Assembly: GCA_045587185.1 (NCBI GenBank)
Contig: JAZNBS010000050.1
Location: 6,564-70,563, forward strand
Length of the DNA stretch: 64,000 nt
Reading direction: 5' to 3'
From: Acutalibacteraceae bacterium
GTDB lineage: Bacteria; Bacillota; Clostridia; Oscillospirales; Acutalibacteraceae
Positions within the stretch are counted from its first letter, which is position 1, and every line of letters starts with the position of its first letter. Below the pieces are notes generated by a model. It was given only the letters and a program-made list of their open reading frames with translations, had not been told where the DNA came from and did no database searches. Below, one piece after another: positions 4,832-57,422 of this stretch. A program made the translations under genes and the position numbers.

Positions 4832-4894
4832 ATTTGTTTCAAAGTCAGGATTTAACAACCTGTTTGAATAATAATTTTTAGGAGGATGTTCAAT

Positions 4895-5167
4895 ATGAAC
4901 AAAACAGAATTAGTAGCAGCTATTGCCGAGAAGGCACAAATCAGCAAAAAGGATGCCGATAAGGCAGTTGCAGCCCTCATCGAGACTGTTACCGAGACTC
5001 TTAAGTCCGGTGATAAGATTCAGCTTGTCGGTTTTGGTACTTTTGAGGTTCGTGAGCGCCCTGAGAGAACCGGTCGCAACCCCCAGACCAAGGAAACCAT
5101 CACCATTCCTGCTTCTAAGGTTCCTGCATTCAAGGCAGGCGCAGCTCTTAAGAACGCTGTTAAGTAA
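4895..5167 (+). CDS. hup: DNA-binding protein HU
   Basis: MNKTELV..., [20 protein letters not shown] and the HU beta-arm signature. AGGAGG RBS. Confidence 0.95.
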
Positions 5168-5187
5168 TTTTTCACTAAGAAGTTTAA

Positions 5188-5216
5188 GCCGCTCGAGAAT
5201 CTTGAGCGGCTTTTCT
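5188..5216 (+). terminator. Rho-independent terminator after hup
   Basis: gccgctcgag-aat-cttgagcggc stem followed by a T-run. Confidence 0.7.
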
Positions 5217-5245
5217 TATGAGTTTAATCTGAGTTTGGAGTTATT

Positions 5246-5488
5246 ATGAGACTAGATAAATATTTAAAGGTTTCGCGTATTATCAAACGCAGGACTGTTG
5301 CCAACGAAGCGTGTGACGCAGGCCGAGTATCCATTAACGGAAAGGTTGCCCGTGCATCCTATGATGTTAAGGTGGGCGATATTATGGAGATTGCCTTTGG
5401 TGAGCGCACCGTTAAGGCCGAAATACTTGATGTGAGCGAGGTTGTCCGAAAGGAAAACGCCGCTATGATGTACCGTATAATTGAGTAA
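5246..5488 (+). CDS. S4-domain RNA-binding protein (YabO/Hsp15-like)
   Basis: MRLDKYLKVSRIIKRRT is an S4 motif. Conserved position before yabP. Confidence 0.8.
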   Translation: MRLDKYLKVSRIIKRRTVANEACDAGRVSINGKVARASYDVKVGDIMEIAFGERTVKAEILDVSEVVRKENAAMMYRIIE

Positions 5489-5557
5489 TCATTGAGAGTT
5501 TTTGCACATATAATTCTCTTGATAGGGTAAAGTTATTTAATTTTGTTACCTTAAACT

Positions 5558-5842
5558 GTGGGGATGATATGTGTGAATCAAAATATTAATAATGCTGAAC
5601 AGTCTATTGTACTTTTCAACCGCTCAAAACTTGATGTTTCAGGAGTAAGTGATGTTATTGGCTTTGATAACGAGACCGTGGTCGCAGAGACCTTGTTGGG
5701 AAGACTTACTGTAAAGGGTCAGGACCTTAAGGTGATGGGTTTTACTGTTGAAACGGGTGATTTGAAGGTTGAGGGCAATATTGCCGCCATAGTTTTTACT
5801 GAACCGACGAAAAAGAGTGTATTTTCGAGGCTCTTCGGCTAA
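5558..5842 (+). CDS. yabP: Sporulation protein YabP
   Basis: About 90 aa, resembling the YabP family (L..R..L.V.GV..V..FD). Synteny with yabO and yabQ. Confidence 0.7.
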   Translation: MGMICVNQNINNAEQSIVLFNRSKLDVSGVSDVIGFDNETVVAETLLGRLTVKGQDLKVMGFTVETGDLKVEGNIAAIVFTEPTKKSVFSRLFG

Positions 5843-6306
5843 TGGGGTATATTGACGTATCGTATCAGGCCGTTACTTTTGCGTTATCATTGCTGTTGGG
5901 CGCGGTTTTGTGTATGCTTTATGATGTTGTCAGAGCGTTGCACAAAACATATATACAAGGCTTTTTTGAGGTGCTTGTGTGTGACCTTTTGTATTTTGGT
6001 GTGTCAGCAGTAATAACATTTTGTTTCCTTGTGATAAGATGTCAGGGAAGTGTACGTTTCTTTGTACTTGTCGGTCAACTTATTGGATTTATGGCAGTGC
6101 GACTTACTCTATCACGGTGGTTTTTAGTAGTAGCGGTACGTATTTTGAAAATTTTTTCATATATTTTTGGTTTTTTCGGTTCTATTACGGTCAGTATTAT
6201 GCGAAAGTTGAAAAAATTTTTAGAAAAAATGCTTTTTTGTGCAAAAAAAGTCTTGCAACCTAAATGCAAGCTGTTGTATAATGACCACAATACATTAAAA
6301 CAATAG
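5842..6306 (+). CDS. yabQ: Spore cortex biosynthesis membrane protein YabQ
   Basis: Multi-TM protein that overlaps the yabP stop codon. Called on synteny. Confidence 0.6.
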   Translation: MGYIDVSYQAVTFALSLLLGAVLCMLYDVVRALHKTYIQGFFEVLVCDLLYFGVSAVITFCFLVIRCQGSVRFFVLVGQLIGFMAVRLTLSRWFLVVAVRILKIFSYIFGFFGSITVSIMRKLKKFLEKMLFCAKKVLQPKCKLLYNDHNTLKQ

Positions 6307-6361
6307 AATTAATTTTAAAAATAAAGTGCGGATAATTTTTAAGTAAAAAACAAAAGGAGAT

Positions 6362-6658
6362 ATGAAAGTGGCAACAGAGACCAAAAGACAAGGCAGTATA
6401 ATCCTTCGTGTTGTACTCTTACTTTTTGCCGTCTGGATGATCTACTATCTTGGTTCTCTTATTAAGGACTATACTTCCGTGCAAAAACAGTATGATGCTG
6501 TTTCGGCTAAACGCGACGAACTGAAACTTGAGGTTGAACAAAAGGCAAATATGCTTGAAAACGGTAACGATGCCGATTTTATTGAGCGGGCAGCCCGTGA
6601 ACGTTTGGGTTATGTTTATGCCGACGAACACGTGTATATCGATATTTCCGGTGACTGA
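6362..6658 (+). CDS. divIC: Septum formation initiator (DivIC/FtsB family)
   Basis: Single TM followed by a coiled coil, with a C-terminal ERAARERLGYV motif. Confidence 0.75.
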   Translation: MKVATETKRQGSIILRVVLLLFAVWMIYYLGSLIKDYTSVQKQYDAVSAKRDELKLEVEQKANMLENGNDADFIERAARERLGYVYADEHVYIDISGD

Positions 6659-6713
6659 CGGAAATTCTTTATAAAATAATTATATCTGGTTCTTTGGAGG
6701 ATTGGGCTTTTTT

Positions 6714-7193
6714 ATGCAGATCGAGGTAGGACAAATCGTAGAGGGAAAGGTTACCGGTATCACCAATTTCGGCGTTTTTGTTGATTTGGGTGAGGGAAAA
6801 TCGGGTCTTGTCCACATTTCGGAAATCGCACAGACTTATGTAAGTGATGTCCGTGAATTTGTTAAGGAAAATGACACAGTTAAAATGAAGGTATTGAGCA
6901 TTTCCGATGACGGAAAAATCAGCCTTTCAATAAAGAAGGCGCAATCGCAGGCTGATGCACCTCAGCGTCCTAAAAACTTTGGTCCTAAAAATAACGGTCC
7001 GAGAGCACCCCGTCCACCGAGACAGGAGCCGGACTATACCTCTCCTGCCGCCGTATGGACTCCCAAGAAGAGCGAGTCGGCTTCTTTTGAGGATATGATG
7101 GCAAAATTCAAGCAGACGAGTGATGAAAAATTTTCGGATCTTAAACGTAAAAACCCTGATACTCGCCGTCCAAAACGTGCTGCTATCAAATAA
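6714..7193 (+). CDS. S1-domain RNA-binding protein (YabR-like)
   Basis: S1 motif VGQIVEGKVTGITNFGVFVDLGEGKSGLVHISE, then a basic low-complexity tail. Confidence 0.85.
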   Translation: MQIEVGQIVEGKVTGITNFGVFVDLGEGKSGLVHISEIAQTYVSDVREFVKENDTVKMKVLSISDDGKISLSIKKAQSQADAPQRPKNFGPKNNGPRAPRPPRQEPDYTSPAAVWTPKKSESASFEDMMAKFKQTSDEKFSDLKRKNPDTRRPKRAAIK

Positions 7194-7313
7194 TAATCTG
7201 TAGTACGTGACAATATACTATTGTTTTTGAGCATAATAAATCATTAAAACTGCAGACCGACCGCCTTTTTTACATAATACAGGTGTTAGGTCTGCTTTTT
7301 GTTTGGAGTAAAG

Positions 7314-8162
7314 ATGATAAACGAAATTGACGTAAAATATATTGAGGACTCGGTTGCGAGACTTTGTGTTGAGGCCAATAAAATACTGCCTGAAAGTGTA
7401 TGCAACAGTATCTGCAGTGCTCATAGCACCGAAACCAACGGACTTGGCAAGGAAATAATGTGCGATCTGATGAGAAACATTGAGGCCGCAAAGGAACTGG
7501 ATATACCTATCTGTCAGGACACGGGTATGGCTGTTGTGTTTCTTGAAATCGGTCAGGATGTGCATTTTGTGGGAGGTTTATTGCGTGATGCGGTTGACCG
7601 CGGTGTGGCAAGAGGGTATACCGAGGGTCTTTTAAGAAAATCCGTTGTTATTGACCCGCTCAACCGTTTAAATACCAACGATAATACCCCCGCGATACTT
7701 CATATAGATATGGTTGAAGGTGACAGCGTTAAGGTGACGGTTGCACCAAAAGGATTTGGCAGTGAGAATATGAGTAAGGTCGCAATGCTTACACCGTCCG
7801 AGGGCAGAGAGGGCGTTGTTAACGCTGTTTTGAATATCGTAAAACAGGCAGGCAGTAACCCTTGTCCGCCGATGGTTGTCGGTGTCGGTATCGGCGGTGA
7901 TTTTGAGCAGGTGGCTCTGCTCTCAAAAAAAGCACTTTGCCGTGAACTTGGGACATACAATGCCAATCCTTTTTATGCTGAACTTGAAAATGAACTGCTT
8001 GACAAGATAAATAAACTCAATATCGGTCCACAGGGTTTTGGCGGTGATACCACCGCTTTAGGTGTGAATGTTGAGTATGCTCCCACACATATTGCGGGTC
8101 TTCCTGTGGCTGTTAATATTGGTTGCAATGTCACCCGCCACAAATCTGAAATAATAAAATAA
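7314..8162 (+). CDS. Class I Fe-S hydro-lyase alpha subunit (fumarate hydratase / L-tartrate dehydratase alpha)
   Basis: PICQDTGMAVVFLEIG and GPQGFGG motifs of the FumA N-terminal domain. Confidence 0.8.
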   Translation: MINEIDVKYIEDSVARLCVEANKILPESVCNSICSAHSTETNGLGKEIMCDLMRNIEAAKELDIPICQDTGMAVVFLEIGQDVHFVGGLLRDAVDRGVARGYTEGLLRKSVVIDPLNRLNTNDNTPAILHIDMVEGDSVKVTVAPKGFGSENMSKVAMLTPSEGREGVVNAVLNIVKQAGSNPCPPMVVGVGIGGDFEQVALLSKKALCRELGTYNANPFYAELENELLDKINKLNIGPQGFGGDTTALGVNVEYAPTHIAGLPVAVNIGCNVTRHKSEIIK

Positions 8163-8172
8163 CGGTGAGAAA

Positions 8173-9291
8173 ATGACAAAGTATAATATGATTGCTCCGT
8201 GTATTTTCGGAGTTGAGGGAATATTGGCCGACGAATTACGCCGTTTGGGCGCCGACGATGTCAACGCTGAAAATGGCCGTGTGCTTTTTTCAGGCGATGC
8301 TTCAATGATAGCCGCCGCCAATATCAATTCGCGTTTTGCAGAGCGTATAATGCTAAATCTGGGCACTTTTAAGGCAATGACGTTTACCGATCTTTTTGAC
8401 GGTGTTAAGGCATTGCCGCTTGAAAAATATATTTCGGTTAAGGATGCGTTTCCGGTAAAAGGATGGAGTATCAATTCTCAACTTCACAGTATTCCGGACT
8501 GCCAATCTATAGTCAAAAAGGCTTGTGTTGAACGTTTAAAATCGGTTTATAAGACTAATTGGTTTGAGGAAACAGGTCCCGTTCATCAGTTGCAGTTTTC
8601 AATTATGAAAGATCAGGTAACATTAATGATGGATACTTCGGGTCACGGTCTGCACAAGAGGGGATACCGTGCCAATTCCAATGCCGCACCGATTAAGGAA
8701 ACCCTTGCCGCGGCAATGTGCGATTTGGCAAGAATTTATCCTGATACCAAGATTTTTGACCCGTTCTGCGGAAGTGGAACAATACTTGTTGAGGCCGCAT
8801 TGCTGGCTAAAAAGCAAGCACCCGGTCTTCGCCAACACTTTGCCGCCGAGCGTTTTTCGTTTATTGAAGAAAAGGTTTGGCGTGAGCAACGTGCCGCGGC
8901 AATGGACAGAATTCTGCCTAATATTGAGTTTGAAGCAGTGGGTTATGATATTGACCCCGAGTGTGTGAAACTGACACTTGAAAATGCTAAGAAAGCAGGC
9001 GTTGAAAAATATGTACGTGCTGAGGTACGTGATGTGCGCGATTTTAAACTGCCGGAGGGCAGAACGCTTGTAATAACTAATCCGCCGTACGGTGAGCGTT
9101 TGCTTGATATCCGCGCTGCAGAAGAACTTTATAAGGTTATGGGTAATGTTTTTCCAAAAGAACAGGGTAGAAAGTATTATGTTATAAGTCCCCATGATGA
9201 GTTTGAAAAGTATTTCGGTCGCACGCCGGATAAAAAGCGCAAACTTTACAACGGTATGATAAAATGTGATCTTAATATGTATTTCAAATAG
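8173..9291 (+). CDS. THUMP-domain class I SAM-dependent RNA methyltransferase (YpsC/RlmL-like)
   Basis: N-terminal THUMP-like region, DPFCGSGT SAM motif and ITNPPYGERL catalytic motif. Confidence 0.8.
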   Translation: MTKYNMIAPCIFGVEGILADELRRLGADDVNAENGRVLFSGDASMIAAANINSRFAERIMLNLGTFKAMTFTDLFDGVKALPLEKYISVKDAFPVKGWSINSQLHSIPDCQSIVKKACVERLKSVYKTNWFEETGPVHQLQFSIMKDQVTLMMDTSGHGLHKRGYRANSNAAPIKETLAAAMCDLARIYPDTKIFDPFCGSGTILVEAALLAKKQAPGLRQHFAAERFSFIEEKVWREQRAAAMDRILPNIEFEAVGYDIDPECVKLTLENAKKAGVEKYVRAEVRDVRDFKLPEGRTLVITNPPYGERLLDIRAAEELYKVMGNVFPKEQGRKYYVISPHDEFEKYFGRTPDKKRKLYNGMIKCDLNMYFK

Positions 9292-9323
9292 GCGTTATAA
9301 TTTAAATATGATGTATATATAAA

Positions 9324-9356
9324 ATAGCCTACCTGAATTTTCAGGTAGGCTATTTA
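9324..9356 (+). terminator. Rho-independent terminator
   Basis: atagcctacctga-attt-tcaggtaggctat stem followed by T residues. Confidence 0.75.
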
Positions 9357-9560
9357 TAATTAACTGTTGTTCACTTCTGACTTTTTGACGTGTTCTTTAG
9401 CACAACGATGTCAATAAACACAGTATTTGATTCTAAAATAATTCTCATAACATCAATGCGAAAAAATATGCGATTGTATTAAAATAATAGTGGAAATTCT
9501 GAATATTTATGTTATAATATTTATATTATTGACGAACTTTTAAATATTTGGAGGTAAAAA

Positions 9561-29217: not shown

Positions 29218-29346
29218 TACTGTCTTCAGGGCGGGGTGAAATTCCCCACCGGCGGTGAAAGGCTCAGCCTCAAGCCCGCGAGCACTTAAGTGTTGATTTG
29301 GTGAAATTCCAAGGCCGACGGTAAAGTCCGGATGAAAGAAGATACA
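29218..29346 (+). promoter_or_regulatory. FMN riboswitch (RFN element)
   Basis: AGGGCGGGGTGAAATTCCCCACCGGCGGT...AGCCCGCGAGC...GATTTGGTGAAATTCCAA.GCCGACGGT...GTCCGGATGAAAGAAGA matches the RFN conserved core. Confidence 0.9.
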
Positions 29347-29373
29347 TAAAAACACTTATGGTGTTGTTTTGTT

Positions 29374-30159: not shown

Positions 30160-30262
30160 TGCCTTATCAAGAGTGGTGGAGGGAATCGGCCCGATGATAC
30201 CCGGCAACCTGTTGTTAAACAAGGTGCTAAATCCGACGGTTTTTTGCCGAAAGATGAGTTTT
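30160..30262 (+). promoter_or_regulatory. SAM-I riboswitch (S-box)
   Basis: CTTATCAAGAGTGGTGGAGGGA..GGCCCGATGA.ACCCGGCAACC...AAGGTGCTAAATCC...AGATGAG conserved core. Confidence 0.9.
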
Positions 30263-42680: not shown

Positions 42681-43193
42681 ATGCCTCAGAAATTTTTGCG
42701 GGCCGGAAAGGTTGTCGGAACACATGGGATACGCGGTGAAATGCGTGTTGAGGTGTGGTGTGACAGTCCTGAATTTCTTGCAAAGTTCAAAAAACTTTAT
42801 ATGGATAAAGACGGTAACGGTGAGTTTTGTGTAAAGTCACGTGCCCATGGTAATATTTGCCTTGTTAAGGCTGACGGAATTGATTCCATTGAATTGGCTG
42901 AAAAGTATCGCGGAAAGGTGCTTTATATTAACCGTGATGACTGCAAATTGCCTAAAGGCAGTTACTTTATTACCGATATTATTGGCTGTAATGCGTTTGA
43001 TTTTGAAACGGATGAGGAGTACGGTGTTGTCGTTGATGTATCGCAGACAGGCGCTAACGACGTATGGCACATAAAACGTAATGGCAATGAGTTTCTTATC
43101 CCCAATGTGCCTGAGTTTGTCAAAAAAGTTGATATTGATGGCAGCAAGGTTTACATAACACCTATAAAAGGAACGTTTGATGATGAAGATTGA
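42681..43193 (+). CDS. rimM: 16S rRNA processing protein RimM
   Basis: GKVVGTHGIRGEMRV and a PRC barrel C-terminus. GGGGGA RBS before ATG 42681. Confidence 0.9.
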   Translation: MPQKFLRAGKVVGTHGIRGEMRVEVWCDSPEFLAKFKKLYMDKDGNGEFCVKSRAHGNICLVKADGIDSIELAEKYRGKVLYINRDDCKLPKGSYFITDIIGCNAFDFETDEEYGVVVDVSQTGANDVWHIKRNGNEFLIPNVPEFVKKVDIDGSKVYITPIKGTFDDED

Positions 43194-43869
43194 TATTTTA
43201 ACGCTTTTTCCCGATATGTGTAATGCGGTACTGGAGGAAAGCATCATCGGGCGCGCAATAAAAGCAGGTCACGTTGAGGTGGAAACACACAACATACGTG
43301 ATTTTGCAGGTAATAAGCATAACCGTGTGGACGATGCACCATACGGCGGGGGTAAAGGTATGGTAATGCAGGCCGAACCTATCTATCAGTGTTTTAAAAG
43401 TTTGTATGCTGATGACGACATTAAACCCCACTTGATTTATATGTCGCCAAAAGGCAAGACTTTTACTCAAAGTGACGCTATCCGTCTTTCGGAATATGAT
43501 AGAATAGTCCTTTTGTGCGGTCATTATGAGGGTGTTGACCAGCGCGTTTTGGACGAAATTGTTGATGAGGAGATTTCGGCTGGGGATTATGTATTAACCG
43601 GCGGCGAACTTCCTGCACTCACTGTAACCGATGCGGTTTGCCGTATGATTCCGGGTGTCTTACCTGAGGAGATTTGTTTTCAGGAAGAAAGTCATTTTGA
43701 CGGTCTTTTGGAGTATCCTCAATACACCAGACCAGAGGTGTGGCACGGTGTTTCTGTACCCGAGGTGCTATTGTCAGGTCATCATCTAAATATCCAAAAA
43801 TGGCGCAAAGAAAAATCTGTTGAGATTACTCAAAAAGCACGTCCTGATATGATTAAAAACCGCAAATAA
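43177..43869 (+). CDS. trmD: tRNA (guanine37-N1)-methyltransferase TrmD (canonical copy)
   Basis: ILTLFPDM, DDAPYGGGKGMVM, LLCGHYEGVDQRV and GDYVLTGGELPA. Lies in the rpsP-rimM operon. Confidence 0.95.
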   Translation: MMMKIDILTLFPDMCNAVLEESIIGRAIKAGHVEVETHNIRDFAGNKHNRVDDAPYGGGKGMVMQAEPIYQCFKSLYADDDIKPHLIYMSPKGKTFTQSDAIRLSEYDRIVLLCGHYEGVDQRVLDEIVDEEISAGDYVLTGGELPALTVTDAVCRMIPGVLPEEICFQEESHFDGLLEYPQYTRPEVWHGVSVPEVLLSGHHLNIQKWRKEKSVEITQKARPDMIKNRK

Positions 43870-45831: not shown

Positions 45832-46545
45832 ATGAAAATTTCTATTCTGACTATTACACCCGAATTTTTTTCATCTTTTCTAAACACTACCATTATCAAA
45901 CGCGGTATTGACAAAAAGGTTTGTGAAATTGAGATAGTTGATATCAAAAATTTTGCACACGGCAGTTTCAGACATATTGATGATTCGCCGTTTGGTGGCG
46001 GAAACGGTATGATTATGCGTTGTCAACCAATATATGATGCATTAAATTCTGTGTGTCTAAACAATTCACATAAAATTTTACTTTCGCCTAAAGGAAAGAC
46101 CTATAATCAGTCAAAGGCTCGCGAACTGTCAAAGCAAGAGCACATTGTTCTTATCTGCGGACATTATGAGGGTATTGATGCTCGCGTTGAGGAATGGGTT
46201 GACGAACAGGTATCTATTGGTGATTACGTATTGACGGGCGGAGAATTGGCCGCACAGGTCATAACCGATTCAGTAGTCCGTTTGCTCAAGGGTGTGTTAA
46301 GGGACGGGTCTACGAACGAAGAATCACACGAGAACGGACTTTTGGAATACCCGCAATACACTCAGCCGCGTGAGTTTCAAGGTCTAACGGTTCCCGATAT
46401 ACTGCTTTCGGGCCACAAGGCAAAGATTGATGATTGGCGTTTGACACAATCGTTAAATTTAACACGAAAACACCGTCCTGATATGTTTGAACGTTATGTT
46501 TTAAATGAAAAGGAGAAGAAATTATTGAAAACGGCAGATGAATAG
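45832..46545 (+). CDS. Second TrmD-family tRNA (guanine-N1)-methyltransferase paralogue
   Basis: ILTITPEFF, DDSPFGGGNGMIM, LICGHYEGIDARV, GDYVLTGGELAA and LLEYPQYTQP are all retained. By eye it is roughly half identical to the copy at 43177. Confidence 0.9.
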   Translation: MKISILTITPEFFSSFLNTTIIKRGIDKKVCEIEIVDIKNFAHGSFRHIDDSPFGGGNGMIMRCQPIYDALNSVCLNNSHKILLSPKGKTYNQSKARELSKQEHIVLICGHYEGIDARVEEWVDEQVSIGDYVLTGGELAAQVITDSVVRLLKGVLRDGSTNEESHENGLLEYPQYTQPREFQGLTVPDILLSGHKAKIDDWRLTQSLNLTRKHRPDMFERYVLNEKEKKLLKTADE

Positions 46546-48654: not shown

Positions 48655-49071
48655 TTACTTGTCAAAAGACGGGTTGATTTCGTAGAAATTCTTTTCGTTG
48701 AGTTTATCGGTAAGGTTGCGTAAGCCTTCACCAAAGCGTTGATAGTGAACAACTTCGCGTTGACGTAAGAACCTTATGACATCTCTGACGTCGGGGTCGT
48801 CTGCACAGTAGCGGAGAATATTGTCATAGGTTGTTCTTGCCTTTTGCTCGGCTGCCAATGATTCATGCAAATCGGTTATAGGATCTCCCTTTGATGCAAG
48901 TGCCATTGTACTGTATGGTACGCCTGAAGCCGCTTGGGGATAAATTCCGTTGGTGTGATCAACAAAATATGCGTCAAAACCTGACTTGTTAATGTCATCT
49001 TCCGAGAGGTTGCGGGTTAATTGATAAACGATTGTACCTACCATTTCAAGGTGAGCAAGTTCCTCAGTACC
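48655..49071 (-). pseudogene. cotJC: cotJC 3' portion (Mn-catalase-family spore coat protein), separated from its 5' portion by the inserted element
   Basis: The reading frame upstream of Met 49044 continues as GTEELAHLEM back to 49071. This matches the central E-x-x-H metal motif and C-terminal half of CotJC. Confidence 0.85.
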
Positions 49072-49128
49072 TATTGAAGAATAAAATTGTTTATGTTATA
49101 ATACCACCATCAAGGAGGTAAAAAAGTT

Positions 49129-49452
49129 ATGAGGAAAAACTATTTAATTGACTATTACCGCAACAATATGACACAGGAACAACTGGAAAATGCCCACACC
49201 TTACTTTATGATGATAACAGGTTATTATCTTATATCTGTTATTCATATAATTGCTATGAACTATTACATAGCAAGGGGCATTTATCATTGATAACCAATC
49301 CAGATGCTTTGTTTTCTACACCACAAGCAGAGCAACAATTCATTATGGAATTAAAAAACTACATAAGAGATGTTATTGGTATCAAGAGAGAGGATGTTCA
49401 AGATGGCAACACTAAAAGTAATAGAGCCGACCAAAACAACACTAAAAACTAA
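49129..49452 (+). CDS. Hypothetical 107-aa protein overlapping the recombinase start
   Basis: AAGGAGG RBS, 9 nt before the ATG. No motif recognised. Confidence 0.45.
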   Translation: MRKNYLIDYYRNNMTQEQLENAHTLLYDDNRLLSYICYSYNCYELLHSKGHLSLITNPDALFSTPQAEQQFIMELKNYIRDVIGIKREDVQDGNTKSNRADQNNTKN

Positions 49453-51190
49453 TGATAATAAACCGCACAGAGTTTGTGCGTACTGTCGTGTATCTACTGA
49501 TGAAACCGACCAAAGAAATTCTTTAATAGCACAAAAACAGTTTTTTCAAAGATATTTTGATTTACACCCAAACTGGACTAATGTAGGCATATATGCCGAT
49601 GAAGGACTTTCCGGCACATCCCTTGAAAAAAGAGATGCTTTCAATCGTATGTTGTTTGAGGCCAGACGTGGAAACATTGACATTATTCTCACGAAAGAGG
49701 TTTCCAGATTTTCAAGAAATGTTCACGATATAATGAGCATTGTTGTAGAACTGCAAAACAAAGGTGTTTATGTGTGGTTTTTGTCGGATGAAATTAACAC
49801 CGAGAGCATCAAAGACCGTGAGCGACTAACCCAGATAGCCACAAATGCCGAGCAAGAGAGTTTAAGAACATCAAACCGTGTTAGGTGGGGACACCAACAA
49901 CAAATGCAACTGGGTGTTGTTTTCGGCAGAAAAGAAATGTACGGTTATAATATCGTAAAGGATGATAACGGCATCCAACACTTTGAAATTATACCAGAAG
50001 AAGCCGAGGTCATCAAGAACATTTTTGAATGGTTCGCATCTGGTGAGGGTACACACCGAATTGCACGCAGATTAGAACAACAAGGAATTGAAACCAAGCG
50101 ATATAAAAACGGATGGAGTACAACCGTTATACTCCGCATTTTGCGAAATGAGAAATATGTGGGCGATTTAGCACAAGGCAAAACCTACACACCCAACCCA
50201 CTCTCTCATAAGAAAAAATACAATACAGGCGAATCCACCCGCTATTACATTACAGACCACCACCCAGAAAGTGCAATCATTGACCGTGAACTCTGGAACA
50301 AGGTACAAGCGATACTGGAAGAAAAAGCACCCAGCGAAGAAATAAAAGCGAAACACTCCAACCGCTACTGGACGAGCGGAAAGGTGTTTTGTGGGTTATG
50401 CGGTCAAAGGTATGTCAGTTACGTAAAAAAGCAAAAGAACACACCTTATCGTGCTTGGGTATGCTTTGAGAACCACCAGAGAGGTCGCTACAAGCAGATA
50501 ACACTTGATACAGGCGAAACTGCTACTGTCGGTTGTAATGCTTTGAGAGTGAATGACAGAGTGCTTAAAACCGCCGTTCACGATATTGTTACCGAGTACA
50601 TCATACCGCATAAAGAAAATATCCTTGCAGAGATGCGAAAAGAGATAGAACAACTATCAAAACCGCAAGACCACACAAAGAAAATCGCATCTATACAAAA
50701 GGAAATAGAACAAGCACAACAAAAGATAAACAAACTCACACAGGGTTGGATGGATGGCATCGTTCCAGAAAATGCCTATACAATGAATATCGGACCTGCT
50801 AATGCACGATATGAGCAATTACAGGCAGAACTCCAAAAACTGCAAATACAGAACAATTCAGTAAGTGCAGAGGTGCAAATCTATGAGGAATACATAGAGC
50901 AACTGCAAAGCATCCTATCACTCACCGATGATGAGCTTAACGATGCTTTTTATGAGAGAGTTACAAAACAGATTTATGTTTATCCATCAAACCTTTTAGA
51001 GTTTCGCCTGTCATTTATTCCTATGCCTATTTATTTACAATATAAGGCATCTGGTAGAGCAGATTTTTACAAGGTGGAACTTACCATCCTAACCGCCGAG
51101 CAATTCGCTGAAATGCTCAAAAATGCCCCTAAAAACGATTTTACGGAACAAACAGATACAGACACCACTGGCAACACAAACAACTCTTAA
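49403..51190 (+). CDS. Large serine recombinase (resolvase domain, recombinase domain, zinc ribbon and coiled coil)
   Basis: AYCRVSTDETDQ contains the catalytic Ser. Also ILTKEVSRFSRN, a CGLCG...C zinc ribbon and a long coiled coil (KEIEQAQQKINKL). Confidence 0.95.
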   Translation: MATLKVIEPTKTTLKTNDNKPHRVCAYCRVSTDETDQRNSLIAQKQFFQRYFDLHPNWTNVGIYADEGLSGTSLEKRDAFNRMLFEARRGNIDIILTKEVSRFSRNVHDIMSIVVELQNKGVYVWFLSDEINTESIKDRERLTQIATNAEQESLRTSNRVRWGHQQQMQLGVVFGRKEMYGYNIVKDDNGIQHFEIIPEEAEVIKNIFEWFASGEGTHRIARRLEQQGIETKRYKNGWSTTVILRILRNEKYVGDLAQGKTYTPNPLSHKKKYNTGESTRYYITDHHPESAIIDRELWNKVQAILEEKAPSEEIKAKHSNRYWTSGKVFCGLCGQRYVSYVKKQKNTPYRAWVCFENHQRGRYKQITLDTGETATVGCNALRVNDRVLKTAVHDIVTEYIIPHKENILAEMRKEIEQLSKPQDHTKKIASIQKEIEQAQQKINKLTQGWMDGIVPENAYTMNIGPANARYEQLQAELQKLQIQNNSVSAEVQIYEEYIEQLQSILSLTDDELNDAFYERVTKQIYVYPSNLLEFRLSFIPMPIYLQYKASGRADFYKVELTILTAEQFAEMLKNAPKNDFTEQTDTDTTGNTNNS

Positions 51191-51208
51191 AACGAGCCAC
51201 AATGAATT

Positions 51209-51235
51209 AAAGCAGGGTTTTCGCCCTGCTTTTTC
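51209..51235 (+). terminator. Rho-independent terminator after the recombinase gene
   Basis: agcaggg-ttttcg-ccctgct followed by TTTT. Confidence 0.75.
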
Positions 51236-51333
51236 AATATTCAGTTTTCTGTCATATCTTTTTTGAAAAAAGGTATGGCTATTTTGACAGAATTATGCTA
51301 TAATCATTGTTAATGTGTTTGGAGGTGAAAATA

Positions 51334-52383
51334 ATGCAAGAGTTACTAATGTCTTTGTTACAATTAGTTTTACTATTGCTTAACCCAGTTTTTTTAATTC
51401 CTGCAATAATAATTATTGTTGTGCTTGTAAAGAAAGACAAGGAATATAAAAACGGTGCATATTATCAAATCACCAAACACCCCTATTTTTCAGTAAAACA
51501 CAATACTGGTAGATATGGCGAATATCTCACATACAAATATCTCAAACAGTTTGAAACCAACGGAGCGAAATTTCTTTTTAATATCTACATACCCAAAGAG
51601 AACGGCGAAACCACCGAAATTGATGTGTTAATGATATGTAAAAAAGGTTTATTTGTTTTTGAGAGCAAAAATTATAGTGGTTGGATTTTCGGTAGTGAAA
51701 ATCAAAAGAATTGGTATCAAACATTACCTGCTGGTAGAGGTCGGAGCCATAAAGAGCATTTTTACAATCCAATAATGCAAAACCGCTCACACATAAAACA
51801 CCTTAAAGCATTTTTAGGCGAACAAGTACCTATGCGGTCAATCATTGTTTTTTCCGATAGATGCACATTAAAAAGTGTTCAAATCCGTAGCAATGATATA
51901 AGCGTTATAAATCGTTATAGCGTTGCACCAGTTGTATCTGGTATCTGTAACCAAATTCCCAATGATTTACTTACTGATAACGATATTACAGAGATTTATA
52001 ACAAATTATATCCCTACACACAAGTTGATGAACTTGCCAAAATGCAACACATAGCAAATATCCATAACAATTTGAAACCGCAAACTGCTCAACCAGTTAA
52101 TGAAACACCTGCTCAAGTTATTCCACAAAACAAGACCGAAATAGTTACAGAGCAACCAGATGCGGTTGCTATTGATACAACAATCGCAACAGAAGAAACA
52201 CCGATTATTGAAACTACCGAACCAGCAACAACAGAAACAAGAGAGCAACAAACATTAAAATGTCCTAAGTGTAACGGTGATTTAATTTTAAGAACTGCAA
52301 CCAGAGGAGCAAATGCAGGTAATCAATTTTATGGTTGCTCAAATTATCCTAAATGTAAATACATACAAAACATAACAAATTAA
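51334..52383 (+). CDS. NERD-domain protein with an N-terminal TM and a C-terminal topoisomerase-type C4 zinc finger
   Basis: EIDVLMICKKGLFVFESKNYSG is the NERD core. CPKCNGDLILR...FYGCSNYPKCKY is a zf-C4-Topoisom-like finger. Confidence 0.75.
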   Translation: MQELLMSLLQLVLLLLNPVFLIPAIIIIVVLVKKDKEYKNGAYYQITKHPYFSVKHNTGRYGEYLTYKYLKQFETNGAKFLFNIYIPKENGETTEIDVLMICKKGLFVFESKNYSGWIFGSENQKNWYQTLPAGRGRSHKEHFYNPIMQNRSHIKHLKAFLGEQVPMRSIIVFSDRCTLKSVQIRSNDISVINRYSVAPVVSGICNQIPNDLLTDNDITEIYNKLYPYTQVDELAKMQHIANIHNNLKPQTAQPVNETPAQVIPQNKTEIVTEQPDAVAIDTTIATEETPIIETTEPATTETREQQTLKCPKCNGDLILRTATRGANAGNQFYGCSNYPKCKYIQNITN

Positions 52384-52420
52384 AAAATCCTGTGAGCAAA
52401 TTTGCTCATAGGATTTTTTT
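52383..52420. terminator. Bidirectional terminator between the NERD gene and mob
   Basis: aatcctgtgagcaaa/tttgctcataggatt flanked by A- and T-runs. Confidence 0.75.
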
Positions 52421-53471
52421 AATGGTCCAAAATATCATCAATCGTTCGGTGTTGCTCTTGGATGCTCTCTTGTAAATCCGTGAGATATTTTAAGAGTGTG
52501 ATGTTTTTGCCTTCGTGTTGAATTACAACATTGCCGGCTAATTTAAGTAAACTCTCATATGTATTACATTTATCAATGAGTTCAAGATAACGTTCTGGAA
52601 CGAGTTCGCCGTGTTCTTTAACCATTGCTTTAATGTCAGCGAGATTTTGTTCAGCAGTTTTAAGCTCATCCAGTTTTAGAGAATATTCAGCGTCAACCTG
52701 TGCTTTCCATTCTCTAATAGATTGATGTTTACGAAATTTAGGTATCTTTTCGCCGTACTTTTCACAGTATGCCTTTACCTGCTCATAGGTAATTGAACCA
52801 TCCTTATTGCCAAAACCTTTTCTTTTTGCACGTTGACACAAAGCAAGATAATCGTTATATCTGGAATGACCTCGTTTCAAATCAAACTCTTTCATTGCCT
52901 CGGCATACCTATCTTGTAGTTTACTCAAATCGCCACGGCCACCTAAAATATCTTTTGCCATAAACAATAAATTTCTGCCGATTGTTGCATACACAAAATG
53001 GATATGTGGAGTGTCCTCATCCATATGCAGTTCAAGTCTTACGGGCACACAACCCTTTGAATTAAATTCCTTTTCAAGAAATTTCATATTTGCTCGGACC
53101 CAGTTATCAACATCAACCTTTCCTGCCATATCTGGCGAAAAGGTTAGTACACCCTCAAATGCTTGTGCTGCTCTTTTCTGCATATGTCTTTTTGCTTTTT
53201 CATCACCTGTCCGTGTTGCATTGAATTTGTCAATTTCGGAATTATAAAATTCTCTTGCCTTATCTATTTTGGAAGCAATTTTTTTGAAGGGCCAAGGGTT
53301 GTGTAGTATGCTCCGATTTTCACTAGATAATTCTGGATGTGAAATATCAGCGGCTTGTTCGTGCTTATCCAAATGTCGTAAAGATTGCGACAGAGTTTTT
53401 GCACCACGACCGTGTGTTTGTAATTTCACTATTCTAAAAATGCAAAACTCTTTTGACTTCTCTTTTGCCAT
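52419..53471 (-). CDS. MobV-family (Pre/Mob) plasmid mobilization relaxase
   Basis: LELHMDEDTPHIHFV is the HxDE..PHxH motif III of MobV relaxases. The N-terminal region is relaxase-like and the C-terminus is a coiled coil. Confidence 0.85.
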   Translation of the reverse strand: MAKEKSKEFCIFRIVKLQTHGRGAKTLSQSLRHLDKHEQAADISHPELSSENRSILHNPWPFKKIASKIDKAREFYNSEIDKFNATRTGDEKAKRHMQKRAAQAFEGVLTFSPDMAGKVDVDNWVRANMKFLEKEFNSKGCVPVRLELHMDEDTPHIHFVYATIGRNLLFMAKDILGGRGDLSKLQDRYAEAMKEFDLKRGHSRYNDYLALCQRAKRKGFGNKDGSITYEQVKAYCEKYGEKIPKFRKHQSIREWKAQVDAEYSLKLDELKTAEQNLADIKAMVKEHGELVPERYLELIDKCNTYESLLKLAGNVVIQHEGKNITLLKYLTDLQESIQEQHRTIDDILDH

Positions 53472-53679
53472 AAAAAATTTTTACACATCCTTTCCTCAAT
53501 TTTTTACATCCAAAACAAAAAACTTTGTGAAGTTTTTGTTTTGTCTTTGCCTTGCTAAAAATCTTTTTTCGTTGATACGAAAAAACCTTTTCATCAAGCC
53601 GTATCATTCACACTCATTGCTGATGCAATAAGTATGAAAGATACTGCAAAAAAATAGCGGAAATTCTATGTACCCACTA

Positions 53680-53850
53680 CAAACAAGCAAACTTGTTTGA
53701 TGGGCCAAGGTGCTACCTTGGAACCGTTTAAGGATTGCATCCTTAAAAATCCTGCCACCGAAAAAAGCGTATACGCTTTTTTATACGGCAAAAAATACCG
53801 TATGCGGTAAGGTGAAAAATACCTTACCCACCGCCTTAATTTTTGCCGTA
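53680..53850. other. Hairpin-dense non-coding region upstream of mob: candidate oriT (or single-strand origin)
   Basis: Inverted repeats at 53680-53699, 53705-53721, 53729-53745, 53761-53782, 53796-53809 and 53806-53828. Distal inverted pair tacggcaaaaa/tttttgccgta. Confidence 0.4.
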
Positions 53851-53973
53851 TTGTATGAACTATATTTTTGTGTTTGAGAACAAAAAATATAATTCATACT
53901 TTGTGTAAGACAATAACGGCTGATGCCTTATATTTTGCCTTACACATACGGATGAAAGGAGTTGTTTTTTATT

Positions 53974-54498
53974 ATGGATAAAAAAGATATACGTGTTTAT
54001 CTGGATGCTGACTTTTGCGACCACTTAAAAAGCATTGCAAAAGATAAAGGTATTTCTGTAAATTCGCTTGTTAGCGAATTAGTGAAAAAGAAATATCCTA
54101 TGCAGAGCAAAGATATTTCCATCAAACTGAATGATGATAAAATTGTTTTACTTAAAAAGGCGGCACAAAAGAGAAATACAACAATTAGTGAATTGTTGAT
54201 TTCTCTTGTTGATGATTTCTTGTTGTCGGTGAAACAACCCGCACTTGATGAAATTCCGCTTGATGCCGAAACTGGTGAAACTGCATCAACCATTGCCTGT
54301 GAAAGTGAGAATGTGCAACCTGTTGATGTTGTAAAACCAACCGCAACGGATGATGACCGCAAACAGAAAGAACGCCGACTTGCTGATGTTAATTACAAAC
54401 TCAAAAGAGCATACAATGGTGATAAACTACCAAAAGATGAATTTCAGCAGTTAAGAGATGAACAAGCATCTTTACGTGCTGAACTCGGTCATAACTAA
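53974..54498 (+). CDS. Hypothetical protein with two ribbon-helix-helix (CopG-like) modules
   Basis: IRVYLDADFCDHLKSIAKDKGISVNSLVSELV and ISIKLNDDKIVLLKKAAQKRNTTISELLISLV resemble tandem RHH units. Confidence 0.5.
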   Translation: MDKKDIRVYLDADFCDHLKSIAKDKGISVNSLVSELVKKKYPMQSKDISIKLNDDKIVLLKKAAQKRNTTISELLISLVDDFLLSVKQPALDEIPLDAETGETASTIACESENVQPVDVVKPTATDDDRKQKERRLADVNYKLKRAYNGDKLPKDEFQQLRDEQASLRAELGHN

Positions 54499-54796
54499 AA
54501 ATCATCACAAAATCGCTCCACCGAGCGATTTTCACAGTACCAACAAAGTGATACTAAAATCACACATCACCGTAGGTGATACCAAAAGCGACAGTTTAAC
54601 ACCATCTAACTGATACTCATTCAACACTTTCAAAGGTTCGCCGCCTGTCCGTGCAATTTATCGCACGGGATAACATATCAAATCACAAAACCACCTGCAC
54701 AGGAAAGCAGGTGGTTTTTTCATAAAGTGCAACAACCTATTCAACGCCAAGAAATAAAATCACAAGAACATCAAAAAATCCGTATGCCAACTTTAA

Positions 54797-55001
54797 GAGT
54801 TTGCAATCACCGATTTTTCACATCGCATCAGCGATGCCAAAAAATATATACAACTCTTAAAGGTTAAGTTTGCAAACCCTTAAAATAACCAAAAAGAAAA
54901 AGCGAACATTCTCAAATGTTCGCCACCAGTAAAACCGCATTAAGTTAATCAGACCATTAAAAACACGAGCATCTGGAATTTATAAGCTCAAGTTTGCAAT
55001 C
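54797..55001 (+). repeat. Three dispersed copies of the (a/g)AGTTTGCAA(t/a)C motif with flanking CTTAAA: iteron-like repeats
   Basis: gagtttgcaatc at 54797-54808, aagtttgcaaac at 54866-54877 and aagtttgcaatc at 54990-55001. Copies 2 and 3 are followed by c(c/t)cttaaaata. Confidence 0.45.
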
Positions 55002-55357
55002 TCTTAAAATACACACATCCAGAATAACACACTTTAACTCATATCTTTTTTATCCGCAAAGTACGGCCACCGTAACACCTACTTTGCGGAATCCGTTATA
55101 GAAAACCTAACGGTTCCAACGTATGTTAAATTAACACTATTGAATATAAGAAGAGAGATACAAAAACGAAAAAATGCCGTAAACCCTTATAAATACAAGA
55201 GAAAACGGCATTTTCAATGGTGACAAATATGTCTTATAATAGTGACAGATTTGTCAGGGTTTAGTGCAAAAAAATGCACCAAATTAAAAACAAATCTATC
55301 ATATTTACCTTACAAATAAAAAAGACCATCAAACGATGGTCGGAAAGGGGTAATAAT

Positions 55358-55819
55358 ATGACAACTAAAATTGAAAAAGGAATTTCAATAAACACCATAA
55401 CAGGCGAAGTTTGTGATGTTTATATTGAGAAAGAGGTTAGCAGCCAAAACTTTTGGAAAATCTGGTTAGGTGATATTTTAACAGTTTTGGGTATCATTTC
55501 AAATAGTAAACAGTTAGATGTTATAATTTACATTATGGAAAATATAAGACCAAGCGACAATCTTTTTATTGGTAGTTATGAAAAAATCGCCAATGGTTCT
55601 GGTGTGTCTAAAAGAACTGTTATAAGAATAATGCAAAAACTATTTGAAACAGAATTTTTAAAAAAGGTTCAAAATGGTGTTTACGCAGTAAATGCCAAAT
55701 ATTTAGTTAAAGGCAATGAGAATAAGCGTAGAATGATTATTGACTACCAAAGCACACTTGAACCTTACAATAAGAATGATGCATCCGCAAACCTAAACGA
55801 TGATACGGATGCAGAATAA
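55358..55819 (+). CDS. RepL-like / winged-helix plasmid replication protein
   Basis: SKQLDVIIYIMENI...IANGSGVSKRTVIRIMQKL resembles the HTH core of Firmicute RepL-type initiators. AAAGGGG RBS. Confidence 0.55.
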   Translation: MTTKIEKGISINTITGEVCDVYIEKEVSSQNFWKIWLGDILTVLGIISNSKQLDVIIYIMENIRPSDNLFIGSYEKIANGSGVSKRTVIRIMQKLFETEFLKKVQNGVYAVNAKYLVKGNENKRRMIIDYQSTLEPYNKNDASANLNDDTDAE

Positions 55820-55930
55820 AAAACGATATGCAGAATTTTTCGTTTTTCAAACACATCAATCATAATTATATTTGAGTGAAGTAGAGAGCACTCAAATCCA
55901 TTCAGATTGTTCTTACATAGAGCATATCGG

Positions 55931-55961
55931 GGAGCAAGGTTATCCGCCTTGCTCCTTTTTT
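55931..55961 (+). terminator. Rho-independent terminator after the RepL-like gene
   Basis: ggagcaagg-ttatccg-ccttgctcc followed by TTTTTT. Confidence 0.75.
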
Positions 55962-56031
55962 ATTTTTGCTCATAGGCAAAAAGGAAAGCACACCCGAAAA
56001 GGTGTGCTTAAAATTTTACTTAATTACTCAA

Positions 56032-56268
56032 TTAAGAAACAGTGCTATAAACGATGTCAGTAGCATCTGCAATAGTTACAGCGCCGCCAGAAGCCTGTGA
56101 AAGACCAACATTCATTGCTTCCTTAGAAACATTGAAAAGTGACTGAGTGGTGTTCTTTACAGCCTCAGCAATGTACTTACCGAAAGGTGTAGCAAGTGCA
56201 ATCATAACAACGAGTACGAGTACACAGATAACAACCCAACCGTAATTAGAAAGTGTTTCCTTATCCAT
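56032..56268 (-). CDS. Hypothetical 78-aa protein with one N-terminal TM
   Basis: GAAAGGAG RBS. MDKETLSNYGWVVICVLVLVVMIALATPFG followed by a polar tail. Confidence 0.5.
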   Translation of the reverse strand: MDKETLSNYGWVVICVLVLVVMIALATPFGKYIAEAVKNTTQSLFNVSKEAMNVGLSQASGGAVTIADATDIVYSTVS

Positions 56269-56461
56269 TTAGATTTTCTCCTTTCAAAAATTCAATTTTA
56301 TTTGCAAATAAACCTTTTTGTATGTCATTCCAGATAATGCAAACGATTGAGATATTCGTGCTTAAACAGATATTTGATACATTGTTTTTATTTGCTTGAT
56401 TTAATTATGTTAAATACTTTTTGAAAACGAAGAAAACTTTTTATTGATATAGGAAACAGAC

Positions 56462-56498
56462 AAAAAAGATATGCAGAAAATATCTACATATCTTTTTT
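56462..56498. terminator. Hairpin with an A-run and a T-run just inside the right end of the element
   Basis: [28 protein letters not shown], about 70 nt downstream of the truncated cotJC stub on the minus strand. Confidence 0.5.
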
Positions 56499-56570
56499 AC
56501 TGCAGACCCAGCCGAAAACTGCTTGAACGCTGATTTTGTTGCAAAAAACCGACATTTCCTATAACTTTTT

Positions 56571-56783
56571 TCAAAATGCACAATATTTTTCCTCTATACC
56601 AACATCAGTCAGAAGACCTTTGAGTTCGGCTGTTGGCATTGCATAACGTTGACTGAGGTATCTCAAACTTGCGCCTATCTCTCCATCGGGACCGCCGTAT
56701 TGCGAAATGATAAGGCTTGCAAGTTTAGGGTTTGTCTGCTTTATCTTAATGGGATATTGAAGTTTTTTCTGATATTGCCACAT
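56571..56783 (-). pseudogene. cotJC: cotJC 5' portion. CotJC-matching sequence runs to the break region 56589-56600, then a short element-encoded tail and a stop codon
   Basis: MWQYQKKLQYPIKIKQTNPKLASLIISQYGGPDGEIGASLRYLSQRY...LLTDVG matches the CotJC N-terminus. The ORF ends ...IEEKYCAF*. Confidence 0.85.
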
Positions 56784-57035
56784 TTAGTTTGCCTCCTTTT
56801 CCCAGGGCCATGGTGCTTTTATCCAGTCAAATCCGTCAGAGCCGAAATCGGAACTGAGTGTAAGTGGACCGTATTCTTCTTCGTATTCCTTGACAAGTTC
56901 CTTATATCTCAGGCGGTAAATTTCAAACTTTTTGAGTGCCTCTTTGTCACAGGGATGAGTGTCAAGAAAAAGTCCTGTTTCAAGCATAGCAAATTGCGCC
57001 GCGCGTACGGCATCAAGAAGTCTCTGCTTTTCCAT
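56784..57035 (-). CDS. cotJB: Spore coat protein CotJB
   Basis: FAMLETGLFLDTHPCDKEAL...Y...YGPLT and the C-terminal W.W...PWPWE motif. Confidence 0.9.
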   Translation of the reverse strand: MEKQRLLDAVRAAQFAMLETGLFLDTHPCDKEALKKFEIYRLRYKELVKEYEEEYGPLTLSSDFGSDGFDWIKAPWPWEKEAN

Positions 57036-57256
57036 TATTTTCTCGCCCCCGTAAATTTGCCGTAAAACGGCTTGTCAAGGTCAGGGAAAAGTGTGCCGCG
57101 TTCCAGAGCGTCATTCTCGGAATAGACTTCTCCCCATTTTTGCATTGGCACATAAGCCATGGTTAAAGGCAGGTTTTTCAGTTGTGTGTCACTGAATTTC
57201 ATCTGTTTGTCATGTCGCTCAGGCATAACAAAGCCTTTAAATTTCAAATCTGACAT
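57035..57256 (-). CDS. cotJA: Spore coat-associated protein CotJA
   Basis: LAMAYVPMQKW...Y....AL..GT.FP.L..PF pattern. Overlaps the cotJB start. Confidence 0.85.
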   Translation of the reverse strand: MSDLKFKGFVMPERHDKQMKFSDTQLKNLPLTMAYVPMQKWGEVYSENDALERGTLFPDLDKPFYGKFTGARK

Positions 57257-57422
57257 TGCAAACTCCTTTTATATTAAATTATTTGACAAGCGTCAAATAA
57301 GGGGGGAATACCCCCTCATACCATCCTATGACAGGCCCAAAAACACGTTAAATAAATTTTTCAAAAATTTTGAAAATAATGCTTGCATTTTGGCAGTAAG
57401 TGTGGTAATATATTTGCGTTGC

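Follow-up and report, generated by a model that had tools for sequence, protein, structure and literature searches.

cotJC is split in frame by a potentially removable insertion

We analyzed a 64,000-nt stretch of DNA from an Acutalibacteraceae bacterium (assembly GCA_045587185.1, contig JAZNBS010000050.1, positions 6,564 to 70,563 of the forward strand), which is called the window throughout. It contains the cotJ operon, in which cotJC, the gene of the spore-coat catalase CotJC, is interrupted by a 7,529-bp element carrying a gene for a large serine recombinase (LSR). The genes of the operon are located as follows:

57035–57256, minus strand: cotJA, intact (Pfam CotJA PF11007, E = 3.2e-19)
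56784–57035, minus strand: cotJB, intact (Pfam CotJB PF12652, E = 6.9e-28)
56598–56783, minus strand: cotJC 5' fragment, codons 1–62, the last codon being Gly62 (GGT)
48655–49069, minus strand: cotJC 3' fragment, codons 63–199 and the stop codon, beginning with the metal-binding motif TEELAHLE

The original prediction, made from the letters of the window, had described cotJA and cotJB as intact and cotJC as split in frame by an insert of 7.5 kb. All these coordinates hold, and the break lies after codon 62. The 5' open reading frame (ORF; 56571–56783, minus strand) begins MWQYQKKLQYPIK…LLTDVG; its 62 CotJC codons are followed by 8 codons encoded by the element (IEEKYCAF) and a stop at 56571. 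The remainder of CotJC, TEELAHLEMVGTIVYQL…PSFDK, lies on the same strand at 49069–48655. Its frame stays open for about 9 codons past 49071, which is immaterial. There is neither a stop nor a frameshift within either half, and the 64-kb window holds no second cotJC.

In silico deletion of 7,529 bp (49072–56600) gives a 600-nt ORF encoding 199 aa. The fused ORF matches the Pfam family Mn_catalase (PF05067) with E = 8.5e-50 over residues 1–184, and the metal-binding motif GTEELAHLE (E-x-x-H) is back. It turned out that the fused protein aligns with intact 199-aa homologues (P0001, P0002) over 100% of the length at 93–94% identity. The full-length domain match and the restored E-x-x-H motif place it in the CotJC/Mn-catalase family, and the size of the rebuilt product agrees with what had been predicted.

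An uninterrupted cotJC at a related locus, which the original prediction proposed to look for, is present in locus L038 (GCA_054293545.1). There cotJA, cotJB and an uninterrupted cotJC are followed by the same downstream CapD-like polysaccharide gene. The L038 DNA is colinear with the flanks of the window at 74–81% identity, and the two alignments abut at the break. The fused junction also aligns with the intact attB (host attachment site) sequences of uninterrupted genes. A look-up of the exact window CotJB protein, aimed at empty sites of the same species, returned no record of that protein.

The insertion has the gene set of an integrative mobilizable element

The insertion is a discrete LSR-bearing intervening element, as predicted, with the LSR gene about 300 bp inside its left junction. 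Its features are:

49072–56600, plus strand: integrated element, 7,529 bp, with one copy of the crossover dinucleotide counted
49074–49102, plus strand: sigma-70-type promoter TTGAAG-17-TATAAT with a TG extension, within the LSR-proximal attachment (att) arm
49129–49452, plus strand: F1, an ORF of 107 aa with a strong Shine-Dalgarno site, overlapping the LSR start
49394–51190, plus strand: LSR with Resolvase, Recombinase and Zn ribbon domains and the catalytic motif RVST
51307–52383, plus strand: cargo, protein with a NERD nuclease-related domain (PF08378, E = 4.6e-30) and a C-terminal topoisomerase-type zinc ribbon (PF01396, E = 3.7e-13)
52419–53471, minus strand: MobV-family relaxase (Mob_Pre) with the motif HMDEDTPHIH (PF01076, E = 2.7e-13; NF041497 MobV, E = 5.9e-24, below the curated cutoff)
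53783–53851, no strand assigned: 31-nt inverted repeat upstream of the relaxase gene, 74% complementary, candidate origin of transfer (oriT)
53962–54498, plus strand: ribbon-helix-helix (Arc/CopG-like) protein, weak matches (E about 1e-4 to 1e-6)
55274–55819, plus strand: RepL-type plasmid replication protein (PF05732, E = 2.9e-24)
56032–56268, minus strand: cargo, small predicted membrane ORF of 78 aa with no significant family match

The LSR ORF is open from 49370, and its homologues begin at MFKMATLK. The protein has the resolvase domain with the Ser nucleophile (PF00239, E = 7.9e-27), the Recombinase domain (PF07508, E = 6.3e-25) and a zinc ribbon (PF13408, E = 3.5e-5, slightly below the cutoff) that characterize large serine recombinases, and it matches the integrase family phrog_95 with E = 3e-116. 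Among the ORFs of the element we found no phage structural genes, and a Pfam search of them found no domains of a mating pore (T4SS) or a coupling protein. An Rfam search of the element and the cotJ leader returned no known RNA. The element thus has its own integration/excision module and its own relaxase without T4SS genes, and evidence for its horizontal transfer is given below. This gene set is that of an integrative mobilizable element (IME) with a plasmid-like backbone. The inverted repeat at 53783–53851 is a candidate oriT by its position.

A family of elements occupies the same site in cotJC

We scanned one genome per GTDB species with the LSR. This yielded 32 loci, all in Oscillospirales metagenome-assembled genomes from animal and human guts; the hosts include Acutalibacteraceae, Faecousia, Vescimonas and Flemingiibacterium. 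A CotJC fragment adjoins the LSR in 30 of the 32 loci, and each is broken at residues about 61–65. The two exceptions are a contig fragment and an outlier of 33% identity. LSR homologues at 60–65% identity (L039–L042) split cotJC too. Both junctions are held by 14 loci, which we call complete elements. These are 4.8–7.7 kb long, and the element of one further locus measures about 9.8 kb. When the 14 were excised in silico, the frame was restored at every junction and encoded GTEEL[AG]H there. About 10 of them yield a full-length cotJC; the gene of L008, L021, L026 and L029 remains truncated or interrupted elsewhere by further insertions.

An all-against-all comparison of the 14 complete elements showed that F1 and the LSR are the only genes they share. 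At the DNA level, only the first 2.1 kb of the window element (att arm, F1 and LSR) matches other loci. MobV relaxases occur in 10 of the 14 complete elements; the variable cargo of the family includes RepL or a Rep_OBD-helicase protein, a tyrosine recombinase, a nucleoside phosphorylase and restriction-modification genes. In a Logan contig (L034:1-5895), the recombination module is 94% identical to that of the window and likewise lies in cotJC, while the cargo is entirely unlike: an HNH endonuclease and a DNA methylase (a restriction-modification pair) and a GDSL lipase. This indicates rapid cargo swapping behind a constant integration module.

LSR identity does not follow host CotJC identity (Spearman −0.25). 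LSRs that are 96–98% identical occur in hosts whose CotJC proteins are 43–70% identical, and hosts with 93% identical CotJC carry LSRs that are only 85% identical. Ancient vertical inheritance is not supported by this lack of co-divergence; the elements are now spreading horizontally and in this differ from many skin elements, which are long-standing, vertically inherited residents. Near the host clade of the window, L038 has an empty site (about 79% nucleotide identity over the cotJ flank), the window has an antisense element, and L018 carries a same-sense element (about 73% nucleotide identity). Because the arrival of the elements is recent, the intact halves of cotJC do not prove selection for its reconstitution.

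Junctions, crossover site and orientation

From the comparison of the loci we deduced the attachment sites of the window element (attL and attR are given in the cotJC sense):

56570–56625, minus strand: attL, consisting of the host half-site, the crossover GG (56599–56600) and the LSR-distal element arm TATAGAGGAAAAATATTGTGCATTT
49045–49105, minus strand: attR, consisting of the LSR-proximal arm (plus strand TATTGAAGAATAAAATTGTTTATGTTATAAT), the crossover GG (49070–49071) and the host half-site TACTGAGGAACTTGC
predicted attB junction: …CTGACTGATGTTGGTACTGAGGAACTTGCT…
predicted attP (element attachment site) junction: …CAATTTTATTCTTCAATAGGTATAGAGGAAAAATATTGTGC…

The GG of the Gly62 codon is the sole sequence common to both junctions across the 14 complete elements, since in several hosts a 5' junction with GGT is paired with a 3' junction that reads GGC or GGA. 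This GG is also the centre of symmetry of the reconstructed attP. The LSR-proximal arm is kept in every locus, and the empty site of L038 reads GTAGGCACTGAGGAA.

The original prediction placed the break at a 12-bp direct repeat. Such a repeat does exist at both breaks: on the minus strand, GGTAcTGAGGAA (49071–49060) and GGTAtAGAGGAA (56600–56589) are 10/12 identical and stand in the same codon phase. Repeats of this size are expected by chance in dozens, however, and the repeat is not the recombination core, as only GG is common to both junctions family-wide. It appears to consist of the 2-bp crossover plus the likeness of the attP half-sites to the attB half-site. We also considered TA (in GGTA) as the crossover, which is self-complementary and would explain both orientations. 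The GGC and GGA junctions rule it out; it is further excluded by the centre of attP symmetry, which is GG, and by the orientation classes, which carry GG versus CC in attP.

The LSR gene and cotJC point the same way in 19 genome loci; in 11 others, as in the window, the LSR gene is antisense. Read relative to the LSR gene, the central attP dinucleotide is GG in the first orientation class and CC in the second, and the distal arm has diverged too. In the LSR tree the same-sense class is a derived clade, one outgroup aside. In serine integrases the central dinucleotide alone determines polarity. The use of both orientations at one attB fits a setting by the polarity of the attP central dinucleotide, judged by comparison rather than biochemistry. 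By the same comparison, the elements have the 2-bp crossover central in imperfectly symmetric att sites, with polarity setting orientation, that is expected of a large serine recombinase.

F1 is the only conserved partner of the recombinase

F1 is kept in every complete member of the family. It has 41 homologues at the cluster level, all of about 106 aa, with the core …YNCYELLH.K..LSLITNPDALF.TP.AEQ.F..E.K.YI.DV.GIKREDV and 19 invariant columns. The arrangement of promoter, Shine-Dalgarno site and F1 is kept in the 32 loci. The AlphaFold2 model of F1 is all-helical and of low confidence (pLDDT 63). F1 is a candidate accessory factor, regulator or directionality factor (RDF).

Transcription signals at the locus

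Upstream of cotJA there is a promoter-like site:

57323–57349, minus strand: cotJ operon promoter-like site AAC-N16-CATAGGAT, mother-cell (sigmaK/sigmaE) type

A CATAnnAT box with AAC 16–17 nt upstream is kept in the window, in L018 and in L035–L038. The site resembles the sigmaK/sigmaE consensus, and we take it to be of this type. In B. subtilis, cotJ is reportedly under sigmaE control (Henriques et al. 1995). The interrupted cotJC is thus very likely mother-cell specific, in line with the original prediction, which had treated cotJ as a mother-cell operon. Directly after the promoter-like motif, the cotJ leader contains a G/C hairpin (GGGGGTATTCCCCC, 57302–57315, minus strand). Its stem-loop character, GAGGG(G)ACAAA…CCCTC, is kept in L018, L025 and L035–L038, and it has no Rfam match; it may stabilize the 5' end of the transcript or have a regulatory role.

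The recombination module has its own sigma-70-type promoter, TTGAAG-17-TGnTATAAT, in the att arm of all 32 loci. Consensus matching found no CATA-type -10 box in the F1-LSR leader of these loci, although a weak or internal promoter could escape it. In the window the LSR gene runs antisense to cotJ and thus cannot be expressed by read-through from the promoter of the operon; a terminator-like hairpin also lies at 56460–56500 after the truncated cotJC. In the same-sense class (19 loci), F1 and the LSR gene begin within about 45 nt after the truncated cotJC; they share its strand, no terminator intervenes, and transcription from the cotJ promoter in the mother cell would thus extend into both. 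Among the 14 complete elements, no other small gene under separate control that could be an RDF is conserved. As in elements of the skin, SPbeta and gin type, a sporulation gene, presumably expressed in the mother cell, is interrupted and can be restored by precise excision. Mother-cell-specific excision is plausible, but for the window copy the sequence does not favour it, because by consensus matching the module has a sigma-70-type and no sporulation-type promoter and the LSR gene is antisense to cotJ.

A probably active integrative mobilizable element and the alternatives to it

We believe that the insertion is an active, site-specific IME of a previously undescribed family, and give this a probability of about 0.72. 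The LSR would recombine attP with attB, a conserved cotJC segment encoding D-[IV]-G-T-E-E-L, by a 2-bp staggered crossover at the GG of the Gly62 codon. Integration would split cotJC and leave a 62-aa stub; the reverse reaction would excise exactly 7,529 bp and restore the gene. The module (att arm, F1 and LSR) would be transcribed from the sigma-70-type promoter inside the LSR binding footprint. It may be repressed by bound LSR, since the -35 box starts 3 nt from the crossover, within the expected footprint of the integrase. The cargo appears to be exchangeable and plasmid-like. The MobV relaxase and the nearby inverted repeat would permit mobilization by a co-resident conjugative system, and RepL may maintain the excised circle. 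Probably, cotJC is targeted because the target stretch hardly varies among many spore-formers and because the gene is not expressed during growth and is not needed for viability.

Several observations speak against this explanation. A degenerate attP pattern for the excised circle found no match in IMG/VR or in JGI metagenome contigs; few close relatives are present there, which makes this weak evidence. As for a plasmid form, a megablast of the element against PLSDB (72,556 plasmid records) gave no match, and the best plasmid LSR was less than 35% identical. F1 has no Pfam or NCBIfam match, its only weak match being the function-unknown family phrog_17904, and a Foldseek search of its model against PDB and BFVD returned no match with E < 5. 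That several unrelated elements have repeatedly inserted into a sporulation gene of the mother cell also fits developmental excision at least as well as a "safe harbour".

Developmental excision, which the original prediction preferred, would mean an intervening element of the skin, SPbeta or gin type that persists in the germ line and leaves the chromosome specifically in the mother cell, where cotJC is rebuilt, with F1 as the RDF. Precise restoration of the ORF is possible, cotJC stands in an operon with a mother-cell-type promoter-like site (cotJ is known to be sigmaE-controlled in B. subtilis), and the 19-locus class could be co-transcribed from the cotJ promoter. Several unrelated elements target cotJC too, and the literature has sporulation-specific excision for other genes and names cotJC as a target. 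Yet the window element has the opposite orientation, so that read-through cannot act, and the family-wide genes stand behind one sigma-70-type promoter with no CATA-type -10 box. A separately regulated small RDF gene is not conserved, and if F1, co-expressed with the LSR, were the RDF, it would be difficult to see how an element stays integrated. The elements have arrived recently by horizontal transfer and have Mob and Rep genes that look functional, unlike domesticated skin-like remnants, and serine-recombinase IMEs such as Tn4451 need no RDF for either excision or integration (PMC5704250). We consider developmental excision possible but distinctly less probable than not. Equally tentative is the idea that the whole family is a sporulation-stage switch for the spore-coat catalase, with F1 as a new directionality or regulatory factor and the major orientation class wired to the cotJ promoter by read-through.

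It is also conceivable that the element is stuck, or excises negligibly, and that cotJC is in effect permanently knocked out, CotJC being dispensable or backed by a paralogue. Mutants in cotJ or in CotJC homologues are mild in B. subtilis and C. difficile; L026, L029 and L039 carry two or three insertions in one cotJC, all of which must excise for a working gene; and no free attP was found in IMG/VR or the JGI metagenome contigs. This is improbable, however. The LSR ORF is intact and retains the catalytic motif and every domain, both halves of the window cotJC are free of stops and frameshifts, and the window has no second copy. Moreover, near-identical modules occur in very different hosts and with different cargo, which indicates that the family is currently mobile. 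Least probable of all, by a wide distance, is an assembly artefact in which a chimeric contig joins plasmid-like sequence into cotJC, because the same break point, att arm and reciprocal junctions recur in more than 35 independent assemblies from different studies. An active IME accounts best for the locus.

Other insertions in cotJC and further features of the window

Further insertions were seen in cotJC of the family hosts. In L026 (4492–9779) cotJC is in three pieces: a second element of about 4.7 kb (4765–9458) lies between AAE and QKAR, at about residue 135, and has an unrelated LSR of 517 aa that is 26% identical to the IME LSR. In L039 (7093–8700) and L040 (3302–4940) there is a prophage-like region (RecT, YqaJ and helix-turn-helix repressors) with a 512-aa LSR that is 24% identical to the IME LSR. 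This prophage abuts the IME after only about 15 nt of cotJC (GTEELA…), downstream of the IME site. Two unrelated integrases thus use the same stretch of cotJC, and their elements form a tandem array.

In L029 (1–2930) the 5' piece of cotJC begins at about residue 25 and follows a phage lysis module with amidase and holin-like ORFs, which suggests a prophage inserted near QYGGPDGE. The last 26 cotJC codons of this locus are displaced to 9255–9332, about 900 bp downstream of the gene and after a lipoprotein gene. The restored CotJC of L008 (13129–13476) and L021 (14631–14978) diverges after HYQRFGEA, at about residue 177, into a shared unrelated tail, …TKWND.GGAADKTA. The contigs end soon after; the tail suggests a further insertion or replacement at the 3' end of cotJC.

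Elsewhere in the window there are two paralogues of TrmD (tRNA m1G37 methyltransferase), at 43177–43869 and 45832–46545, about 2 kb apart. The first has the usual ffh-rpsP-rimM-trmD context, and the second stands alone beside an MFS transporter gene. An FMN riboswitch and a SAM riboswitch (29218–29347 and 30161–30260), each of which exceeds the Rfam gathering score, precede genes on the plus strand.

Significance of the element family

If the element is excised in sporulating cells, developmental switches made of mobile elements would include not just the prophage-like islands of cultured Bacilli and C. difficile but also small elements, plasmid-like and mobilizable, of uncultured gut Clostridia, and cotJC would join the experimentally tractable targets. 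The element would then be the first IME shown to act like skin or SPbeta, and the flip of the att dinucleotide would naturally couple an element to, or uncouple it from, a developmental promoter of its host.

Regardless of the timing of excision, the family offers a compact serine integrase of high site specificity, for which attB, attP and the crossover are defined and variants that integrate in either orientation occur in nature, together with a conserved partner protein, F1. The IME and an unrelated prophage recombinase share one landing pad, a conserved 20-bp stretch within a sporulation gene, and other elements insert elsewhere in cotJC. For annotation, a split cotJC in these taxa should not be labelled a pseudogene by default.

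Comparison with known systems

Sporulation-specific excision has been documented for skin in sigK (SpoIVCA), SPbeta in spsM (SprA/SprB), vfbin in spoVFB, vrin in spoVR, gin in gerE (GirC/GirX) and yin in yabG. The window element resembles these in having a serine recombinase gene at its edge, in its location inside a mother-cell sporulation gene and in the precise excision that would rebuild the ORF. Like gin, it has no phage genes. The elements of its family are much smaller, 4.8–10 kb against 28–134 kb for gin and SPbeta. Unlike the skin-type elements, the window element is plasmid-like, with a MobV relaxase and RepL, its family is now spreading among genera, and neither a sporulation-type promoter nor a separately regulated RDF was found in it. 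Between the window LSR and SprA the relationship is distant (E = 2e-9 across the catalytic and recombinase domains).

Interruptions of cotJC have been mentioned before. Abe et al. (2013), as cited in later work, name cotJC, gerE, yaaH and yhbH as frequent sites of phage or transposon integration, and a passage in Galperin et al. (2022) mentions a skin-like element in cotJC of Laceyella sacchari. In these cases, as they are summarized there, the same gene is split by an element with a site-specific recombinase, but the hosts are Bacilli and the elements are described as prophage-like or skin-like, whereas the family described here consists of IMEs of Oscillospirales (Clostridia). The reviews and primary papers that we searched, with Abe et al. 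(2013) represented by its citation, contain no IME in a sporulation gene and no mention of this family. The literature thus already counts cotJC among the targets of intervening elements, and the part of it that was searched does not describe the present family.

IMEs that combine a serine recombinase with a MobV relaxase and use a 2-bp crossover are well established (PMC5704250). The streptococcal IMEs that integrate into traG or maff2 of integrative conjugative elements likewise combine a serine integrase with a relaxase/replication module and use an internal site of a conserved gene (PMC5704250). They differ in target gene, host clade and recombinase lineage, and none of them targets a sporulation gene. 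TnpX of Tn4451 needs no RDF (PMC5704250) and is a possible model for the window LSR. Tn4451 and Tn4453 of Clostridium perfringens and C. difficile (TnpX, TnpZ) are, like the window element, small clostridial IMEs (Tn4451 is about 6 kb) with an LSR, a MobV relaxase, a 2-bp crossover and excision as a circle, which for the window element is predicted from its sequence. The tnpX promoter of Tn4451 is reportedly assembled by circularization (Lyras & Rood 2000), unlike the promoter described here, whose two hexamers lie in one arm. The window LSR resembles TnpX weakly and in the N-terminal domain only (E = 4e-7), and Tn4451 has no homologue of F1. Tn4451 uses many target sites with a GA core, whereas the present family uses one site in cotJC with a GG core. 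Because it differs in target specificity and core, the family does not belong to Tn4451/Tn4453, with which it shares a general outline.

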